Origin: an uncultured Gammaproteobacteria bacterium | Lineage (GTDB): Bacteria; Patescibacteriota; Microgenomatia; Daviesbacterales; UBA10151 | NCBI GenBank assembly: GCA_964360965.1 | Contig: CAYHYM010000002.1 | Span: forward strand, 1-32,000 | Length of the DNA stretch: 32,000 bases | Direction of reading: 5' to 3' | In this document: piece after piece, positions 160 through 29,658 of the stretch | How positions within the stretch are numbered: the stretch's first letter is position 1 | Layout: each line of letters opens with the position of its first letter | The notes under the pieces: model-generated | The model's input: the letters and a program-made list of their open reading frames with translations, nothing else | Database searches by the model: none | What the model was told of the DNA's origin: nothing | Position numbers and translations under genes: made by a program

Positions 160-226
160 TATTTTGATTGAGCTACAGCTAAAGCAGGCGGCTTTTCAAC
201 CAATACAAGAGGAACAAAATGTTGTA

Positions 227-266
227 CTTCGATTTCACTCAGTACAACCCTGAGCTTGTCGAAGGG
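227..266. repeat. GC-rich palindromic repeat, CCTGAGCTTGTCGAAGGG family (intergenic copy)
   Basis: CTTCGA(227-232)...CTCAG(238-242)...CTGAG(250-254)...TCGAAG(259-264) form a nested inverted repeat. The core CCCTGAGCTTGTCGAAGGG recurs at 7850-7896, 12728-12816 and 23801-23850. Confidence 0.75.
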
Positions 267-339
267 TTGATTCCCGCTGTGCCTACTTTTAAACTCATAC
301 TAAGGAGATTATATCAGAGAAAGAGGCTTACATTTTAAA

Positions 340-7734: not shown

Positions 7735-8058
7735 TCACATCCCGGGGATGCCTAAACCGCCCATCATGGGTTTCATCTCTTCAGCTGCTACTTTTTGGGA
7801 TTGTTTTAAAGCCTCATTAACTGCTTCTGTCACTTTTTGCGGATCCACTAGCCCTGAGCTAGCTTGCCCTGAGCCTGTCGAAGGGGTCGAAGGGTCTCCG
7901 GAAATTGACTGCACTTTTTGATCTGCTGTCATCACCACAGTTACCCCCCGATGTTCCACAGTAATTTTGATCATGGCCAATTTTTTTTGCATTTCCATGG
8001 CCTGATTCCGCATTTTTTTTAAATCACCCAACTGCTTTAAATTATCAAAAATTCCCAT
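7735..8058 (-). CDS. ybaB: YbaB/EbfC family nucleoid-associated protein carrying a repeat-derived insertion
   Basis: Size, the N-terminal MQKKLAMIKITVEHRGVTVVMTADQKV and the C-terminal VTEAVNEALKQSQ fit YbaB. Sits in the conserved position next to recR. Confidence 0.85.
   Translation of the reverse strand: MGIFDNLKQLGDLKKMRNQAMEMQKKLAMIKITVEHRGVTVVMTADQKVQSISGDPSTPSTGSGQASSGLVDPQKVTEAVNEALKQSQKVAAEEMKPMMGGLGIPGM
7850..7896. repeat. GC-rich repeat (CCTGAGC/GTCGAAGGG family) inserted in-frame in ybaB
   Basis: CCCTGAGC occurs twice (7852-7859, 7867-7874). GTCGAAGGG is tandemly duplicated (7877-7885, 7886-7894). Translated on the minus strand as GDPSTPSTGSGQASSGL. Confidence 0.8.
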
Positions 8059-11278: not shown

Positions 11279-11475
11279 TAACTACCAAATCTTTTGGCCC
11301 GCATAATTTTTCTTCTTTTTTCCGCTAAATATTCCTGCCGAAGCTGTGAGGGTTTTCTATAAAATTCCCTTTGGCGGATCTCCTGTACCACACCCTCCAA
11401 AAGAACCTTCTTTTGGAACTTTCTAATAACCGAATTAGTATTATCTCTGGGACCAGCTTTTACTATGATGCTCAT
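11278..11475 (-). CDS. rpsU: 30S ribosomal protein S21
   Basis: A 65-aa basic protein. VIRKFQKKVLLEGVVQEIRQREFYRKPSQLRQ matches the S21 pattern. Its TAA stop shares one base with the downstream ATG. Confidence 0.85.
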   Translation of the reverse strand: MSIIVKAGPRDNTNSVIRKFQKKVLLEGVVQEIRQREFYRKPSQLRQEYLAEKRRKIMRAKRFGS

Positions 11476-12560
11476 TTTAACTCACCCACCATCTTCTTTA
11501 GAAGATCCAACGTTCTAGTCTGTCTTAAGGCATGGCGAAGATGCAATCTTGGTTCTTGCGCTTCAAACTGTCTTTTTACCCTCTCATCTGTAATCTTCTC
11601 CACTTCTGCCTGAAGCTCCTCCTCACTCACCTGGATATTTTCCAATCTTGCAACTTCTGCCAACCCCAATTCCATCCGCATATTTTTCTCAGCCTGCGGC
11701 TTCCATTCATTTTTGAGCTGTTCTAAGGTTTTCCCTTGTCCCTTTAAGTAATCCTCCAAGAGTAACCCCATATCAGCCACTCTTCTCTGCAAGGATACCA
11801 GCATTCTGTTTAACTCATCGCTGATCAACACCTCAGGCAGCTCAACCGCGGTAATTTTTTCCACCTCCTGCAGGATGGCCTCTTCAAAATCAAGTTCGGA
11901 ATTGAGTTTAACATGATCTTCCAAATCTTTCCTGATTTTTAATCTCAGGTCAGCCAAACCTGCTGACCCCATGGCTTTGGCAAAAGTATCATCTGGTCCG
12001 GCTGCGCTGGATTGCCCGTTTGATGATGGAGTCTGAGATGGCTGGTTTTGTTGAAAATTAATTGATCCGCCGGAACTGCTTCGCGCTTGCGCAGCTCCTG
12101 CGCCCACACTCCATCTTTTATACAAATCATCAATCACCTTAGCAACTTCCTCATCAGTCACGAGTTTGGTGGTAGGTCTTGTTACTTTTATTGTTTTATA
12201 ATCTCCCACAGTAACTTGCGGCCTGTTGGTGATAGTGGCTTTATATTGAAGCTGACCACCTTTGGCATAAGAAATCAGTTGGTACTTTGGATAATCAATG
12301 GGGATAACATCAGTGCCTTTTAAAGCCTCTATTAAAAATGATGGTTGAACGCTTTTTAACACTTCATCCTGAAGTTTAACCCCCAAAGACTGCTCAACCA
12401 TGCTGCCAGGGGCAGTACCTTTTCTAAAACCAGGCAATTCCACATCAAGGGATAACTTTGTCAGGACCTCATTCCATTTAGGTTCTAAATCTACCCATGG
12501 AACAGTAATGGTTACTTCAACAATACTCTTTGGTTGTTTAATAATATTTTTCTGAATCAT
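11472..12560 (-). CDS. tig: trigger factor, apparently lacking the PPIase domain
   Basis: N-terminal ribosome-binding signature GFRKGTAP, and C-terminal arm region (ELPEVLISDELNRMLVSLQRR...). The position of the FKBP domain is occupied by a low-complexity segment of about 45 aa. Confidence 0.8.
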   Translation of the reverse strand: MIQKNIIKQPKSIVEVTITVPWVDLEPKWNEVLTKLSLDVELPGFRKGTAPGSMVEQSLGVKLQDEVLKSVQPSFLIEALKGTDVIPIDYPKYQLISYAKGGQLQYKATITNRPQVTVGDYKTIKVTRPTTKLVTDEEVAKVIDDLYKRWSVGAGAAQARSSSGGSINFQQNQPSQTPSSNGQSSAAGPDDTFAKAMGSAGLADLRLKIRKDLEDHVKLNSELDFEEAILQEVEKITAVELPEVLISDELNRMLVSLQRRVADMGLLLEDYLKGQGKTLEQLKNEWKPQAEKNMRMELGLAEVARLENIQVSEEELQAEVEKITDERVKRQFEAQEPRLHLRHALRQTRTLDLLKKMVGELK

Positions 12561-12635: not shown

Positions 12636-13952
12636 TCAATTAGACTTAATAATATCAATCAATTGTTTTAAATCTTTAAAGTTCGTTTCCTTTTCTGATC
12701 TTTTTTTAACCTCTAATTTATCTTTGGCTCGCCCTGAGTTTACCTGCAGTGAGCCACTCGGTCCTGAGCTCGTGGCCGAAGGGCTTGTCGAACCTGCCGA
12801 ATGGGCCGAATGGGTCTTTTTAGAAATAACCACTCTGTAGGGAATTCCAATTAAATCAGCATCGGCAAATTTTTCTCCGGCAGATACATCTACTCTGTCA
12901 TCAAACAAAACCTCAATTCCTTCAACTTGCAGTAATTTATAAACCTTTTCCGCCTCCCTCATTACAGATTCTTGATCCAAATCCAATCCCACCAAATGAA
13001 CCTGATATGGAGCTACAGACTCCGGCCAAATAATGCCTTTTTCATCATTAAATACTTCCACAATTGCTCCCATGGTTCTTGATATCCCCAAACCATAACA
13101 GCCTGCGGAGACCAGCTTCTCTTTGCCATCCCGATCAACAAAAGTTAATTTAAAAGTTTTGGCAAACGACTCCTTTAAGGGGAAAATATTACCAACCTCA
13201 ATAGACCTTTCCAGCGTTAAATTCCCTCCACATTGAACACATTTTTTATCTTCTGCAATTTCTGCATTTGTGGCAGTTTTACAACTCTCACAGACAAAAA
13301 CAGTATCTTCTCCTGAAGGAGTCAGGGTTTGAAATTCCAAAGACAGGTTTGAAAAAGTACCTCCACCTGCTTTAGTCTCCACAACTGGTAGAGTCAATCT
13401 TTGAAAAATTTTCAGATAAGCCTTCCTGACAATTTGGTAATACTCATCCCTATCGCTATCATCTGTATGAAAACTGTACAGATCCTTCATCAAAAATTCT
13501 CTTCCACGAAGTAATCCTGCTTTAGCCCTTGGCTCATTTCTAAATTTGGTTTGAACCTGATAAAGACACAAAGGTAAGTCTCTGTAAGATTTTGCGTATT
13601 CTTTTACCAGAGGATAAATTATCTCTTCGTGGGTTGGTCCCAAAACCAAATCAGAGCCACCTCCTTTTAATTTAAAAAGTACATCAAAAGAGGAAAACCT
13701 GCCTGTTTTTTTCCAAGCATCAGCAGGGTGTAAGGCTGGCATAACCAACTCATGTGCCCCAATATCATTCATTTCCTCTCTGACTATATCAGAAATCTTA
13801 TCTAAAACTCTCCAACCTAAGGGTAAATAGGTATAAACTCCAGCCATCTCCTGATGGATAAAGCCAGCTCGAGTTAGTAACTGATGATTGATGGACTCAG
13901 CCCCTGAGGGGGCTTGCTTTAAAGTTTTCGGGAAAAGTTTTGAGTATTTCAT
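12636..13952 (-). CDS. proS: proline--tRNA ligase (bacterial type, no INS editing domain) carrying a repeat-derived insertion near the C-terminus
   Basis: Bacterial ProRS N-terminus (SINHQLLTRAGFIHQEMAGVYTYLPLG), class II motif 2 (FRNEPRAKAGLLRGREF), Cys-rich segment CESC...CVQCGG and motif 3 (GCYGLGISR). ATGA overlap with the upstream gene. Confidence 0.9.
   Translation of the reverse strand: MKYSKLFPKTLKQAPSGAESINHQLLTRAGFIHQEMAGVYTYLPLGWRVLDKISDIVREEMNDIGAHELVMPALHPADAWKKTGRFSSFDVLFKLKGGGSDLVLGPTHEEIIYPLVKEYAKSYRDLPLCLYQVQTKFRNEPRAKAGLLRGREFLMKDLYSFHTDDSDRDEYYQIVRKAYLKIFQRLTLPVVETKAGGGTFSNLSLEFQTLTPSGEDTVFVCESCKTATNAEIAEDKKCVQCGGNLTLERSIEVGNIFPLKESFAKTFKLTFVDRDGKEKLVSAGCYGLGISRTMGAIVEVFNDEKGIIWPESVAPYQVHLVGLDLDQESVMREAEKVYKLLQVEGIEVLFDDRVDVSAGEKFADADLIGIPYRVVISKKTHSAHSAGSTSPSATSSGPSGSLQVNSGRAKDKLEVKKRSEKETNFKDLKQLIDIIKSN
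12728..12816. repeat. GC-rich repeat (CCTGAGC/GTCGAA/CCGAATGGG family) inserted in-frame in proS
   Basis: Contains CCCTGAG, CCTGAGCTCGTGGCCGAAGGGCTTGTCGAACC and tandem CCGAATGGG (12797-12805, 12806-12814). Translated as HSAHSAGSTSPSATSSGPSGSLQVNSGRA. Confidence 0.8.
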
Positions 13953-21639: not shown

Positions 21640-23700
21640 CTAGGTAGACACCTTAGTATTATCCCTACCTTTCGGCTTTGTCCAACTAGCATATTTGCAC
21701 TTGGGCCAGTTTTTACAGCCATAAAAAGTTCTACCTTTGCGGGTTCTTCTGACCACAACCTCTCCACCATCATCAGGACATAAACCTGCTATTTTTTCTT
21801 CCAAAGATTCTGTATATTTACATTCAGGAAATCCGGAACAGGCCAAAAACTTGCCGAATTTGCCTGTCCGGACTATCAGTTCTTTACCACAATCCGGACA
21901 TTTTTTACCTGCATACTCCACAACCAATTTAACTTTCTCGGCAGTTTCAATAATCTCTGCCAATTTTTTGGCAAAAGGAGTATAAAACTCTCTTAAGGTG
22001 GGCACCCATGATCTCTCTCCTCTGGAGATCTCATCCAACTCATCCTCCATTTGGGCGGTGAATTGATAATCCACTATATCGGCAAAATTTTTAACCAGAA
22101 AATCAGTCACAGCAAACCCCAATGCAGTGGGAATAAACCTTCGCAGCTGCCTTTCCACATAAAATCTGTCCACAATTATGGATAAAATTGCAGCATAGGT
22201 AGAAGGCCTGCCAATGCCCAACTCCTCTAATTTTTTAATTAAAGATGCTTCAGTATATCTTGGAGGTGGTTCTGTGAAATGCTGTCCAGGAATGATCTGG
22301 ATCAGATTAAGTGGATCATTTTGTGAAAGCTTTGGTAAAACTTGTTTTTTCTCTTCACCATCTTCCCTTGACTCGCCGGAGCCTTCGGCGGAGGCGGTTT
22401 CTGCCTCTTTGCCATATAATTTTAACCAGCCATCGAACTTAATCACAGAACCAGTTGCTCTTAGCAAGTACACCTCGAAGGAGTCAAAGCCCACCTTCGA
22501 GGTGGAGGCCTTCACATCCACTGTGGTTTGATCCATCACTGCTTCATTCATCTGACAGGCCACAAATCTTTTCCAAATTAGATCATATAGCCTGACATGA
22601 TCCCTGTTCATCCCTGGTAAGCTTCGCAAGGCCTGGCCTTGCGTGCGTACATCAGTCGTCCTTATCGCCTCATGAGCTTCTTGTATATTTTTGGCTTTGG
22701 ATTTGTATAATCTTGGGCTTTTGGGTAAATATTGTCTACCAAACTCTTTACCAATAAATTCTCTGGCAGATGCAATTGCCTGGGACGCAAGATTTACTGA
22801 ATCAGTTCTCATATAAGTGATTAAACCCCGCTCATAGAGATTTTGGGCCAGCATCATGGCACGCCTGGCGCTAAATCCTAGCCTGTTTGAGGCTGTTTGC
22901 TGCAGGGTGGAGGTGGTAAATGGAGGAAAAGGGTAGCGGCGAACTTCTTTTTTGGTAACTTTGGCAATCTGATAATCTGCTTTTTGCAGATTTTTTACAT
23001 GCCCATCAGCTTCATTTTTATTTTTAATGGTTAATTTTTTACCATTTTGTTCTATTAAGATTGCAGTAAAGGAGGCGAAGTCTGAGCCAACCAACCCCAA
23101 TATAGCTTCAATTATCCAGTACTCCTGAGGTTTAAAAGTGGTAACTTCTCTTTCTCTTTCAACCACAAGGCGTAGCGCCACAGACTGCACCCTTCCGGCA
23201 GACAAACCCCTTTTAACTTTTTGCCAAAGAAGTGGAGATAATTTATAACCAACCAATCTATCCAAAACTCTCCTGGCTTGTTGAGCATCAACCAGTTTTA
23301 GGTCAATGCCACGAGGATTCTCGAAGGCTTCTTTAATGGCCTCTGGAGTAATCTCATGGAAGACCACTCTTTTAATGTCTTTGCTGATACTCCGATCCAC
23401 TGACCCACTGACTAACTGGGCTATATGCCAGGCAATGGCCTCACCTTCCCGATCAGGATCTGTGGCTAGCCAAAGTGTTTTGGTTCCTTTAGCAATTTTT
23501 TTTAAGTTATTAACAGTTTTTAATTTGGCTTTGGGAATAATATATCTAGGTTCAAAATTATGTTCCACATCCACTCCCAAATCGCCTTTGGGCAAATCTC
23601 TTACATGCCCCATGGAAGCCTCAATTTGATATTTATCACCTAAAAAGCTCTGGAGGGTGCGCGCCTTAACAGGTGACTCAACTATCACTAAATTCTGCAT
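21640..23700 (-). CDS. topA: DNA topoisomerase I
   Basis: Toprim start LVIVESPVKA, DPDREGEAI, the active-site region LITYMRTDS, and two C-terminal C4 zinc fingers (CPDCG...CSGFPEC and CPDDGG...CKNWPKC). The start at ATG 23700 is preceded by AAGGAG at 7-nt spacing. Confidence 0.93.
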   Translation of the reverse strand: MQNLVIVESPVKARTLQSFLGDKYQIEASMGHVRDLPKGDLGVDVEHNFEPRYIIPKAKLKTVNNLKKIAKGTKTLWLATDPDREGEAIAWHIAQLVSGSVDRSISKDIKRVVFHEITPEAIKEAFENPRGIDLKLVDAQQARRVLDRLVGYKLSPLLWQKVKRGLSAGRVQSVALRLVVEREREVTTFKPQEYWIIEAILGLVGSDFASFTAILIEQNGKKLTIKNKNEADGHVKNLQKADYQIAKVTKKEVRRYPFPPFTTSTLQQTASNRLGFSARRAMMLAQNLYERGLITYMRTDSVNLASQAIASAREFIGKEFGRQYLPKSPRLYKSKAKNIQEAHEAIRTTDVRTQGQALRSLPGMNRDHVRLYDLIWKRFVACQMNEAVMDQTTVDVKASTSKVGFDSFEVYLLRATGSVIKFDGWLKLYGKEAETASAEGSGESREDGEEKKQVLPKLSQNDPLNLIQIIPGQHFTEPPPRYTEASLIKKLEELGIGRPSTYAAILSIIVDRFYVERQLRRFIPTALGFAVTDFLVKNFADIVDYQFTAQMEDELDEISRGERSWVPTLREFYTPFAKKLAEIIETAEKVKLVVEYAGKKCPDCGKELIVRTGKFGKFLACSGFPECKYTESLEEKIAGLCPDDGGEVVVRRTRKGRTFYGCKNWPKCKYASWTKPKGRDNTKVST

Positions 23701-23715
23701 AAAATACTCCTTATT

Positions 23716-23755
23716 GTCATTCTGAGTGTAACGAAGAATCTCTTGCGAATGCAAG
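23716..23755. repeat. GTCATTCTGAG...GAAGAATC family repeat plus a CTTGC/GCAAG hairpin
   Basis: GTCATTCTGAGTGTAACGAAGAATC at 23716-23740 resembles 24477-24503. CTTGC-GAAT-GCAAG lies at 23742-23755. Confidence 0.8.
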
Positions 23756-23778
23756 TACTATTGTAGTGATGTTGTCAA

Positions 23779-23797
23779 GGGTCGCCGAAGGCGACCC
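23779..23797. repeat. GC-rich perfect hairpin, 8-bp stem and 3-nt loop
   Basis: GGGTCGCC-GAA-GGCGACCC. It is not followed by a T-run on the minus strand, so it is not a canonical intrinsic terminator. Confidence 0.8.
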
Positions 23798-23800
23798 GCA

Positions 23801-23850
23801 GACCCTGAGCACTGAGCTTGTCGAAGTGTCGAATGGGTCAATAGTTCGAC
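23801..23850. repeat. CCTGAGC/CTTGTCGAAG/GTCGAATGGG family repeat (intergenic copy)
   Basis: GACCCTGAGCACTGAGCTTGTCGAAGTGTCGAATGGGTC...TTCGACTACGCTCACT. It shares modules with 227-266, 7850-7896 and 12728-12816. Confidence 0.8.
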
Positions 23851-23858
23851 TACGCTCA

Positions 23859-24098
23859 CTATTCAAAATCAGAATCCAAAATTTGTGGGTTAACCTTTTC
23901 CAACTCCACCTTTAGATCAGTAGAAGAATTAAATTTAAATTCCTTTTTAATTGGAGTTGGAGATGGAACTGGAGTCTGAACTGTCCCGGAGAAGGGACTT
24001 ATCATTTTTTTACCTTCCCACCCTTGGGGTGCAAACTTAAAAATTGTTATAACTGTTATAACAATTAAAATTATTATAAAAATTACCTTTTTATTCAT
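23859..24098 (-). CDS. small membrane-anchored hypothetical protein (79 aa)
   Basis: N-terminal TM helix VIFIIILIVITVITIF followed by a Pro-rich linker. Overlaps the upstream gene by 8 nt. Confidence 0.5.
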   Translation of the reverse strand: MNKKVIFIIILIVITVITIFKFAPQGWEGKKMISPFSGTVQTPVPSPTPIKKEFKFNSSTDLKVELEKVNPQILDSDFE

Positions 24099-27992: not shown

Positions 27993-29075
27993 TTAGGGAA
28001 TTTTACAATAAATTCCAGACCCTAAGTTTCTGACCACCCCTTTTATTTCCATTTTTAAAAGACCCGATGAAACCTCGGCTGCGCCAAGTTCCAAAATCCT
28101 GCATATTTCATCTATGTGTTTATTATCATTTTGAAGACAATCAATTATTTTCTTTTCATTTTCGGAAAGATCTGAAACTTTAACCATCTCCTTTTTTACT
28201 CCCTCCATTCCCAACTCCTGTAAAATTTCAGATGAGTCAAAAACCGGCCTGGCCCCTTCTTTGATTAAAGACATTGGGCCTTTTGATAGATCAGAGGTGA
28301 TTGGTCCTGGCACGGCAAAAACATCTCTTCCTTGTTCCAAAGCCAATCTGGCAGTAATCAAAGAACCGGAATCCTGAGCCGCCTCGGTTATCAAGACTGC
28401 CAAAGATAACCCGGCTATAATACGGTTGCGGGAAGGGAAATTTCCGGCCAGAGAAGGATAATCAGGAGGATACTCGGAAATGACAGCCCCAAAACCTTCC
28501 GCAATTCTCTTTACCAGTTGGGTATTTTCAGCCGGAAAGATTTTATTTAACCCCCCACCCAAAACAGCCATAGTTCGGCCCTTCGGCAGGCTCAGAGCAG
28601 TCTTGTGCGCTTGAGTGTCAATCCCCCTGGCCAAACCTGAAACAATGGTAAAGCCTGACAGAACCAGATCACGGGTAAATTTTTCTGTTACCAGCTTGCC
28701 GTAACCAGTCATTTTTCTGGTACCCACCACAGCAATGGCCCGATCATCCCCAGGTACAATCTCACCTTTATAGTACAAAACTATGGGAGAATCATAAATT
28801 TGTTTAAGTAAGTCAGGGTAGTTATCGTCAAAAATTGTTAACCAGGAAACACCCATCTTCTTAATAGACTCAGCATAAAGGATAGGATCCAGAATCTTTC
28901 TGGTTTCTGCCAAAAGATCCAAAACAGTTTGCGGCACCCCTATTTGTCTAATCTCCTTTAAATTAGCCTCCCAGGCCAGTTTCGGATCTTTAAAATAATC
29001 AATTATTGCCTTCAGCCTAATAGGACCTAGCCCATCAATACTATGCAGCGCCAAAAGATAAGCAATATTTTTCAT
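27993..29075 (-). CDS. dprA: DNA processing protein DprA
   Basis: LHSIDGLGPIR N-terminal SAM-like region, a Rossmann core with SGLARGIDTQAH and GSLITA, and a C-terminal winged-helix region. I chose the ATG at 29075; the ORF-track start at 29084 is a TTG three codons upstream. Confidence 0.9.
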   Translation of the reverse strand: MKNIAYLLALHSIDGLGPIRLKAIIDYFKDPKLAWEANLKEIRQIGVPQTVLDLLAETRKILDPILYAESIKKMGVSWLTIFDDNYPDLLKQIYDSPIVLYYKGEIVPGDDRAIAVVGTRKMTGYGKLVTEKFTRDLVLSGFTIVSGLARGIDTQAHKTALSLPKGRTMAVLGGGLNKIFPAENTQLVKRIAEGFGAVISEYPPDYPSLAGNFPSRNRIIAGLSLAVLITEAAQDSGSLITARLALEQGRDVFAVPGPITSDLSKGPMSLIKEGARPVFDSSEILQELGMEGVKKEMVKVSDLSENEKKIIDCLQNDNKHIDEICRILELGAAEVSSGLLKMEIKGVVRNLGSGIYCKIP

Positions 29076-29103
29076 AATTACCAACTCTTAAGTGTAAAAG
29101 GTA

Positions 29104-29130
29104 CTCTTCATTATATTCTCGGTCGAGAAC
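29104..29130. repeat. 27-bp perfect direct repeat, copy 1 (upstream of dprA)
   Basis: CTCTTCATTATATTCTCGGTCGAGAAC is identical to 29622-29648. It contains the palindrome TTCTCG-GT-CGAGAA (29116-29129) and a minus-strand TATAAT (29115-29110). Confidence 0.9.
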
Positions 29131-29138
29131 GTTTTGTA

Positions 29139-29621
29139 TCAAAACTTTATAGTACTCGACTCGAAAATACTTACCCATTCGTCTATTCCAACCTTTTTAA
29201 TATACTCATTTAGTAGATCAGCACAATTCTTTTTGCTTACCCAAATGCTATTTTGAAACCTTATAAACCCTAATTGTTTTAATTGATGTCTTAATAAATC
29301 TCTGGCCTTTCTCCTTTTTTCTGGAATATCCCACATTATTATTCTCCATTTCCCATCCCATTTTTCATCCTCCAGTTTCATCTTTGCCCAAAGTGCCTTA
29401 GTCTTTCCCTCGTCAGTAATTCTAGCAGCTAGCTCTTCATCACTTATTAGTTCTACAAATCCATTTTCTCTAAGCCTTTTAAAAACAAGTGCCAGCTCTG
29501 ATTTTTTAACTGGTCTCTCTAACAAAGGATTGTGTATAAAATCATCAAACTTAACATAACCATCCACTGTTTTTTCTAAGGTTAGGAGAACTATTTTAGC
29601 CAAGCTATTTTTCTTATTCAT
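29139..29621 (-). CDS. small PaaX-like regulator: N-terminal winged-helix domain plus a Cas2-like ferredoxin-fold domain (160 aa)
   Basis: WDGKWRIIMWDIPEKRRKARDLLRHQLKQLGFIRFQNSIWVS matches the W-x-hhhh-YD-hP-x3-R-x2-R pattern of the PaaX central and Cas2-like domains. The N-terminal ~70 aa look like a wHTH domain. Confidence 0.6.
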   Translation of the reverse strand: MNKKNSLAKIVLLTLEKTVDGYVKFDDFIHNPLLERPVKKSELALVFKRLRENGFVELISDEELAARITDEGKTKALWAKMKLEDEKWDGKWRIIMWDIPEKRRKARDLLRHQLKQLGFIRFQNSIWVSKKNCADLLNEYIKKVGIDEWVSIFESSTIKF

Positions 29622-29648
29622 CTCTTCATTATATTCTCGGTCGAGAAC
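29622..29648. repeat. 27-bp perfect direct repeat, copy 2 (immediately upstream of the regulator ATG)
   Basis: Identical to 29104-29130. The palindrome is at 29634-29647. Confidence 0.9.
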
Positions 29649-29658
29649 TTATTGTCAA
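29628..29658 (-). promoter_or_regulatory. promoter TTGACA-19-TATAAT with a palindromic operator in the spacer; probably a leaderless transcript
   Basis: On the minus strand, TTGACA is at 29658-29653 and TATAAT at 29633-29628. Only 6 nt (GAAGAG) separate the -10 box from the ATG at 29621. The palindrome TTCTCGACCGAGAA fills the spacer. Confidence 0.5.

Follow-up and report, generated by a model that had tools for sequence, protein, structure and literature searches.

Rickettsia palindromic elements (RPEs) are palindromic sequences of about 100-150 bp that are known from Rickettsia only (Ogata et al. 2000 Science, as summarised in PMC10969869). The repetitive extragenic palindromic (REP) elements and REP doublets forming hairpins (REPINs) that are mobilised by REP-associated tyrosine transposases, or RAYTs, lie outside genes by definition and carry a GT[AG]G head (Nunvar et al. 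2010, PMC2817692; Bertels & Rainey 2011, PMC3116915), and the RAYT-associated REP of Coxiella burnetii, GTAGGTTGGGCTGAGCTTGCGAAGCCCAAC, follows a stem-GAGCTTGCGA-stem plan (Nunvar et al. 2010, PMC2817692). Intragenic copies of ERIC (enterobacterial repetitive intergenic consensus) and other small enterobacterial mobile sequences span 70-130 bp and bear terminal inverted repeats (Delihas 2007, cited in PMC10969869), and the Bpu elements of Cycas and Ginkgo mitochondria have a 36-nt consensus, AAGGTTATCCCTTTCCTGAGCGTAGCGAAGGGAAGG (Chaw et al. 2008, via PMC8297867). Here we analyze an 87-nt insert in the prolyl-tRNA synthetase (ProRS) gene, proS (12636..13952, minus strand), of contig CAYHYM010000002.1, whose first 32,000 nt constitute the stretch of DNA under study (hereafter, the window). 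The insert is in all likelihood REP-like mini-repeat DNA lying within the reading frame, where it would encode a disordered surface loop in a manner analogous to that of RPEs, albeit at a much smaller scale.

An in-frame insert in the anticodon-binding domain of ProRS

The proS open reading frame (ORF) encodes a prokaryote-like ProRS of 438 aa without an editing domain, in which Pfam identifies the class II core (tRNA-synt_2b, residues 99-300) and a C-terminal anticodon-binding domain (HGTP_anticodon, 320-437), and which matches solved bacterial ProRS structures in the PDB with a phmmer E-value of 5e-95. Codon alignment places the insert at 12726..12812, on the minus strand as the gene, spanning codons 381-409 (29 codons, in frame and with no stop codon) and adding the peptide HSAHSAGSTSPSATSSGPSGSLQVNSGRA between ...RVVISKKT(380) and K(410)DKLEVKKR; the anticodon-binding domain has a conserved strand on either side of this point. 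An earlier note on this DNA had proposed that some 89 nt (12728-12816) interrupt this domain in frame between VVISKKT and KDKLEVKKR with a Ser/Gly/Pro/Ala-rich peptide. Inspection of the ORF and an alignment with the 120 best ProRS matches (65-79% identity, mostly 408-411 aa) corroborate the insert, its frame and the point of interruption, and show that the peptide is also rich in Thr; the codon alignment shifts the limits by two to four bases, to the 87 nt given above. The segment is an insertion rather than a set of conserved residues: about 105 of the 120 homologues present no residues between ...SKKT and G/Q-D-KLEVKKR, and the phmmer alignments to PDB ProRS structures end at residue 379-380.

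The insert also departs from its host gene in composition, with a GC content of 63% (0.55 at third codon positions, GC3) versus 38% (GC3 0.31) for the rest of proS, in a window of 40% GC. To judge by the source names of its closest ProRS homologues, the window derives from a Candidatus Daviesbacteria-like member of the Microgenomates, within the candidate phyla radiation (CPR). The insert-bearing gene was assembled independently, and base for base identical, in two further samples (L084 and L085; L-numbers designate loci or contigs of relatives or other bacteria, and P-numbers designate homologue proteins), indicating that the insert is not an assembly artefact. A search of genome contigs for related loci returned only two close relatives, both of them insert-free.

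Structural prediction with AlphaFold2, using a 38-sequence alignment, models the insert as coil, with predicted local distance difference test (pLDDT) scores of 36-41 that stay below 50 for residues 383-409, whereas the flanking strands (372-376 and 413-417) score 83-88. Such a low-confidence, unstructured segment between confident strands is consistent with the surface exposure that the earlier note proposed to check, and with a disordered surface loop located where the C-terminal hairpin of the anticodon-binding domain turns. All columns found invariant in the 38 aligned homologues are, by construction, retained in the protein, and the strands beside the insert keep the invariant charged residues E414, K416 and R418. 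On the basis of these conserved residues, ProRS most likely still works as an enzyme, and the loop is most likely either neutral or mildly deleterious, of no benefit and of no serious harm to it. The predicted tryptic peptide covering the loop is THSAHSAGSTSPSATSSGPSGSLQVNSGR.

Same-site inserts in relatives and the repeat unit

The insert is not private to the source genome, since shorter versions of it (6-17 residues, 18-51 nt) occupy the same codon in 14 of the 119 other ProRS sequences, encoding peptides such as HSASSGQA, PSTSSGQ, FTADSGQA, LSINSG, HSISFDTTQDRRSGQA and HSVSSPRGDLAEPGQA. In the DNA of eight insert-bearing relatives we located a repeat unit running antisense to proS. Its canonical form, derived from these relatives, comprises 24-28 nt and can be written as AGCTTG-CCCTGAGC[CT]TGTCGAAGGG-GTC or AGCTTG-CCCTGAGCYTGTCGAAGGG-GTC, where CCCTGAGCYTGTCGAAGGG is a 19-nt core; the form of about 24 nt, or eight codons, is GCTTG-CCCTGAGCYTGTCGAAGGG. 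Given that the length of the unit is a multiple of three and that five of its six frames are stop-free, a copy falling in a tolerant surface loop would leave the protein intact.

Relatives present this unit in different states. The L088 insert, GCTTGCCCTGAGCTTGTCGAAGGGGTC, is pristine (28/28 to the unit), those of L083 and L211 share the CCGAATGG tail seen in the window, that of L086 is read in a different frame, that of L087 is AT-decayed (about 17/29 to the unit), and L089 and L081 carry different loops at the same site. In the ProRS insert of L082 (L082:860-2074) a 24-nt piece appears to interrupt the unit after CCCTG, suggesting insertion of one unit into another. In the closest pairs of filled and empty sites, L083/L210 and L211/L212 (88.5% amino-acid identity), the filled member shows a clean gain of 24 nt, and in a neighbour-joining ProRS tree the carriers are scattered, the nearest relative being insert-free for all 15 of them. 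Furthermore, the inserts are 88-92% identical to one another, compared to 54-58% for the flanking third codon positions, a difference that is suggestive of recent gain while not being significant on 24 nt. The allele of the window resembles a form of the single unit of these relatives that has been expanded or nested.

The pieces of the unit in the window insert read 5' to 3' on the plus strand, antisense to the gene. Alignment of the insert to the 28-nt canonical unit yields five collinear local matches in the same orientation with a summed score of 94, a value that none of 1000 dinucleotide shuffles reaches (mean 16, maximum 70), and the reverse complement scores 0. The matches include a head piece, GCTCGCCCTGAGTTT (12727..12741; unit positions 1-16, 13/15 in local alignment), a core copy with a 3-nt insertion, CCTGAGCTCGTGGCCGAAGGG (12763..12783; local alignment score 24, also recovered as a motif match), CTTGTCGAA (12784..12792; unit positions 13-22), and a tail piece (12807-12816), with one further piece besides. 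The modules quoted in the earlier note are all present on this strand: CCCTGAG at 12732-12738, CCTGAGCTCGTGGCCGAAGGGCTTGTCGAACC at 12763-12794, and two tandem copies of the 9-mer GCCGAATGG at 12796..12813, a tail module that yields HSA-HSA in the protein. They had been attributed to a separate, second repeat family, which is probably not the case, as they are pieces of one 24-28-nt unit that follows the hairpin plan shared by the other small hairpins of the window (stem-GAG[CT]...CGA-stem). The broader proposal that an essential tRNA synthetase carries a repeat-derived low-complexity loop is upheld by motif counts, by the alignment of the unit against shuffles and by the inserts of relatives.

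Joining CCCTGAG (12732-12738) to CTTGTCGAA would restore one unit, so that the 45 nt in between (12739-12783) may represent a nested addition; this reading of the sequence likewise suggests that GCCGAATGG arose as a 9-nt tandem duplication.

Additional insertions were observed elsewhere in ProRS. Seven other relatives carry 9-aa inserts of the V[AG]DPERSRR type at a second site, after residue 342 (P0079 [L089:3946-5220], P0035, P0095, P0109, P0113, P0115 and P0119), and in L089 the DNA inserted at this site consists of a perfect, sense-oriented hairpin unit, tcctGAGCAAAGTCGAagga. Single cases occur after residue 328 in P0105 (LTRSARSGQV) and after residue 411 in P0077 (KQSLRPDGL).

Copies of the unit in the window and in other bacteria

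The window contains four to five unit loci, both genic and intergenic. A hairpin scan delineates a family whose stems vary while the GAG[CT]...CGA loop is conserved, and in intergenic DNA the core makes up the loop of a short hairpin together with its inner stem. Five occurrences of the composite motif C[CT]GAGC-N2-9-CGAA[GT] were counted in the window versus 0.08 expected, and eight of the 9-mer [GC][TC]CGAA[GT]GG versus 0.9 expected. The second genic copy (7848..7895, plus strand) lies in ybaB (7735..8058, minus strand), whose product matches Pfam YbaB_DNA_bd (nucleoid protein YbaB/EbfC). It adds in frame about 15 aa (PSTPSTGSGQASSGL, encoded in the only stop-free frame of the segment) and encompasses a hairpin at 7867-7885 (plus strand), with positions 7861-7888 matching at 27/28 the unit that a different organism, L088, carries in its ProRS insert. 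This block is missing in the syntenic loci L001, L002 and L086, and L087 presents a 7-aa block there (ADLSADQTG region). We dropped the description of these coding copies as palindromic, RPE-like elements, because the proS insert and the ybaB copy fold no better than shuffles on both strands.

Two intergenic copies that had been placed at 227-266 and 23801-23850 were recovered at 245-269 and 23804-23839. The former belongs to a pair of opposed hairpins (221..269), formed by gttgtactGAGTGAAATCGAagtacaac at 221-248 (minus strand) and caaccctGAGCTTGTCGAagggttg at 245-269 (plus strand), the latter containing the exact 19-nt core at 248-266. The latter belongs to a cluster of hairpins in alternating orientation upstream of topA (23719..23863), consisting of a hairpin at 23719-23739 (plus), the composite CCCTGAGCA-CTGAGCTTGTCGAAGTG-TCGAATGGGTC at 23804-23839 (plus) with a hairpin at 23810-23828 (plus), and a hairpin at 23840-23863 (minus). 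The spacer upstream of topA measures 336 nt here versus about 53 nt in the syntenic L086, and a search of 23650-23950 against Rfam at relaxed thresholds returned only noise. The TTG start listed for topA (23754) would overlap the 23719-39 hairpin, and the true start is thus probably located further downstream. Amid these repeat hairpins there is also a perfect GC-rich hairpin with a GAAG loop, GGGTCGCCGAAGGCGACCC (23778-23797).

Beyond the relatives of this ProRS, the exact core CCCTGAGCYTGTCGAAGGG is present in at least 120 metagenome contigs, with GC contents of 31-75%, and in at least 120 IMG/VR viral contigs. A 33-nt hairpin version matches plasmids and chromids, mostly where the DNA is unannotated, of Sphingobium (up to 22 places per replicon), Comamonas, Moraxella, Sinorhizobium and others. 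The core typically lies within a longer hairpin (CCGTTCG-core-CGAACGG) or takes part in inverted doublets or in tandem arrays of 24 nt, as in L107. The L107 array of 24-nt units (1900-2100) lies within a 2.1-kb stop-free span and reads (PST[GS]SGQA)n. In low-GC contigs the core falls inside long ORFs, where it is read as PSTGSGQA, LRQAQG or PFDKLR. Examples include an ABC permease (L114, between its MacB_PCD and FtsX domains), a protein with epimerase and Polysacc_synt_C domains (L167, between the two), a protein sorted by the type IX secretion system (T9SS) (L176, upstream of its sole Pfam match) and a ResIII helicase (L159, at the N-terminus, before the domains). Hairpins with long stems and the same loop were also seen in distant phyla (cctccaaccGAGCGAAGCGAggttggagg, in a contig labelled Saccharibacteria, and gttgatgctGAGCCTGTCGAagcatcaac, in Omnitrophota), as was a near-exact core located shortly downstream of proS in a different genome of the Omnitrophota; these examples map to L027:7420, L071:18249 (minus strand) and L045:11709. 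A literature search using the unit strings and their six-frame peptides retrieved no description of the unit in bacteria, but did bring up the Bpu consensus of Cycas and the REP of Coxiella.

A segment of dprA (27993..29084) was first counted as a fifth copy and then set aside, the region being of native length. The segment, CTGAGCCTGCCGAAGGGCCGAAC (28579-28601, minus strand), differs at one position from the portion of the core that reads CTGAGCCTGTCGAAGGG and at three from the full 19-mer, and encodes ALSLPKGRT within a Pfam match that shows no insertion; it reflects either chance or a unit overwriting a native loop without changing its length. Two other features of the window were noted. 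Direct repeats of 34 nt that are 94% identical (29104-29137 and 29622-29655) exactly bracket a 160-aa ORF with a PaaX_M / Cas2-like domain (29139..29621, minus strand), an arrangement that may represent a small cassette or a regulatory spacer present in duplicate. The trigger factor gene (11472..12560, minus strand) encodes Trigger_N and Trigger_C domains without a peptidyl-prolyl isomerase (PPIase) domain, joined by a GC-rich low-complexity linker (...AGAAQARSSSGGSINFQQNQPSQTPSSNGQSSAAGPDD..., especially 11979-12121), and its relatives (355-372 aa) have similar lengths.

Origin of the loop and comparison with known systems

As the origin of the proS insert, we propose that a copy of the unit landed antisense in the anticodon-binding domain, at the turn that joins its last two strands, where it would be read in frame as P/H-S-T/A-S-S-G-Q-A. 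From this single-unit state of 24 nt, as seen in relatives, the window allele would have grown to 87 nt through partial units in the same orientation, with the apparent nested addition placed inside the first unit and the 9-nt duplication at the tail, producing a translated, disordered Ser/Gly/Pro/Ala/Thr loop of 29 residues. The copying may have proceeded by single-strand transposition of the REP/RAYT kind, by gene conversion or templated repair, or by slippage.

Several observations weigh against this proposal. The recurrence of the modules within the window, asserted in the earlier note, exceeds chance by motif counts, but a plain blastn-short search with the insert as query returns from the remainder of the window only matches of 9-11 nt (E >= 0.5). 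The similarity within the window is therefore modular and short, and the strong link of the insert to the repeat comes from comparison with the inserts of relatives and the canonical unit. Positions 12742-12762 match nothing, and the insert folds no better than shuffles (z -0.06 and -0.64) and is not palindromic at present. The AlphaFold2 model is modest overall, with a mean pLDDT of 63. The filled and empty pairs (L211/L212 and L083/L210) reveal no target-site duplication or terminal inverted repeats, Pfam detects no transposase or RAYT among the 16 window ORFs scanned, and the ORFs between inverted element pairs in the loci examined encode only unrelated proteins, with no RAYT-like ORF among them. 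Translation of the loop, its tolerance and the sequence of expansion events are points that we infer, and the first of them should be counted here as well. Finally, 14 of the 15 same-site inserts share orientation and frame, which random insertion followed by selection does not predict.

This last observation extends to the site itself and to the end sequences (CAT/CCT TCG ... TCA GGG CAA GC), a coincidence not predicted by random re-insertion, and it would be accommodated by a single ancestral gain in Daviesbacteria proS, with the patchiness resulting from many precise losses or from recombination of the filled and empty alleles among co-occurring lineages. The ProRS tree, moreover, is star-like at depth, and the scatter of carriers is thus weakly resolved. 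We nevertheless consider a single gain unlikely, given that the nearest relatives of all carriers are empty and that no flanking direct repeats favour precise deletion. The unit variants also differ among carriers, including the different frame of L086 and the different loops of L089 and L081, and the L088 insert matches the cross-phylum consensus at every position even though synonymous sites in the flanks are near saturation. The scatter of carriers, the unit variants and their range of ages are not as a single vertical origin predicts; repeated insertion with a site preference and the spread of one allele by recombination are both possible sources of the same-site patchiness. An adaptive, selected feature of ProRS, such as a new interaction surface or a tRNA-handling element, might be suspected from the location of the loop in a hairpin with invariant charged residues, within the domain that reads the anticodon, and from the intact state of the insert in three assemblies. 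These assemblies represent essentially one population, however, and the free variation in length and sequence among carriers, the absence of the insert in most relatives, the predicted disorder of the loop and the presence of the same DNA unit in intergenic regions and in unrelated proteins render this explanation improbable.

It is very improbable that the resemblance to the repeat is a chance effect of composition and that the loop is a lineage-specific low-complexity expansion by slippage. The 9-nt tandem duplication is a classic outcome of slippage, and the short blastn matches to other window copies would fit it, but the shuffles never attain the observed unit content, the matches are strictly of one orientation, and the same-site inserts of relatives carry the exact 19-28-nt unit found at window positions 248-266 and 7861-7888. 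The notion that the segment lies outside the mature protein, whether through translational bypass, as an intein or intron-like RNA, or as an artefact of assembly, has nothing specific in its favour and is scarcely credible: it is in frame and free of stop codons, the whole window yields no Rfam match at gathering thresholds, RNA folding is indistinguishable from that of shuffles, the sequence is the same in all three assemblies, and 29 aa are far too short for an intein.

A wider generalization of the REP-like origin favoured here can be advanced tentatively, and we regard it as doubtful in its full extent. It posits a coding-compatible REP-like family of 19-24 nt with a conserved GAGC...CGA loop, distributed across phyla and viral contigs, that would have repeatedly entered the same codons of essential genes through site-preferring or homology-guided copying other than cut-and-paste; in Daviesbacteria, the loops counted under it are at least three in ProRS and one in YbaB. 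If true, flexible protein loops would have a general source that has not been described so far. That one codon is occupied again and again across a clade, together with an exact 19-mer across 31-75% GC and viral contigs, points to a mode of copying or targeting that known REP, miniature inverted-repeat transposable element (MITE) and RPE systems do not explain. For the streamlined genomes of the CPR, the proS insert suggests that repeat DNA, whether selfish or neutral, is tolerated within an essential enzyme of translation, and the carriers offer a natural series for the birth and erosion of a loop, from empty site to single 24-nt unit, 87-nt mosaic and AT-decayed remnant. In practical terms, such inserts make divergence look larger than it is, interrupt local alignments, as in the phmmer stop at residue 380, and yield many spurious "hypothetical proteins" in other frames.

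Among described systems, ERIC resembles the unit in being a small intergenic repeat that occasionally occurs in ORFs as in-frame fusions, and differs from it in that intragenic copies of the ERIC type are rare and are not known to recur at one codon. The terminal inverted repeats and target-site duplications of MITEs are absent from the L211/L212 and L083/L210 pairs, and the insert displays none of the traits of inteins, introns or translational bypass, being of 29 aa and presenting no Rfam match, stop codon or significant fold. The Bpu consensus contains CCTGAGC-N-CGAAGGG, with the same stem-GAGC...CGA-stem layout as the unit; Bpu elements are organellar, 36 nt long and bounded by AAGG terminal direct repeats, whereas the unit lacks both the 5' AAGG and the 36-nt length. 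We take this resemblance as a lead only, any homology being putative.

The intergenic copies match the REP/REPIN pattern more closely, as imperfect palindromes of 20-30 nt that are clustered and alternate in orientation (221-269; 23719-23863), as in bacterial interspersed mosaic elements (BIMEs) and REPINs, with variable stems and a conserved GAGC...CGA(A) motif; the Coxiella REP shares its stem-GAGCTTGCGA-stem plan with the window hairpins. The proS insert as a whole does not have this short palindromic form, the GT[AG]G head is replaced by variable sequence before the stems (CCCT, caac, attct ...), and, unlike REPs, the unit also sits in reading frames. In this last respect it resembles RPEs, which are multi-copy, occur between genes and in frame within unrelated and often essential genes, and add a peptide while the host protein is kept. 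The proS and ybaB copies are likewise in frame and free of stop codons. Unlike RPEs, the unit measures 24 nt and the insert 87 nt, neither forms a stable palindromic hairpin of 100-150 bp, and the coding copies are non-palindromic, partial or tandem mosaics; one codon is occupied patchily across a clade, and the core extends across phyla and viral contigs. By their defining features, the RPE, REP, Bpu and MITE classes thus do not appear to include the unit, for which no RAYT was seen in the window or between inverted pairs. By analogy, its closest structural counterparts would be the RAYT-associated REPs, that of Coxiella in particular and Bpu more loosely, and the closest functional analogue of the proS unit would be the RPE.

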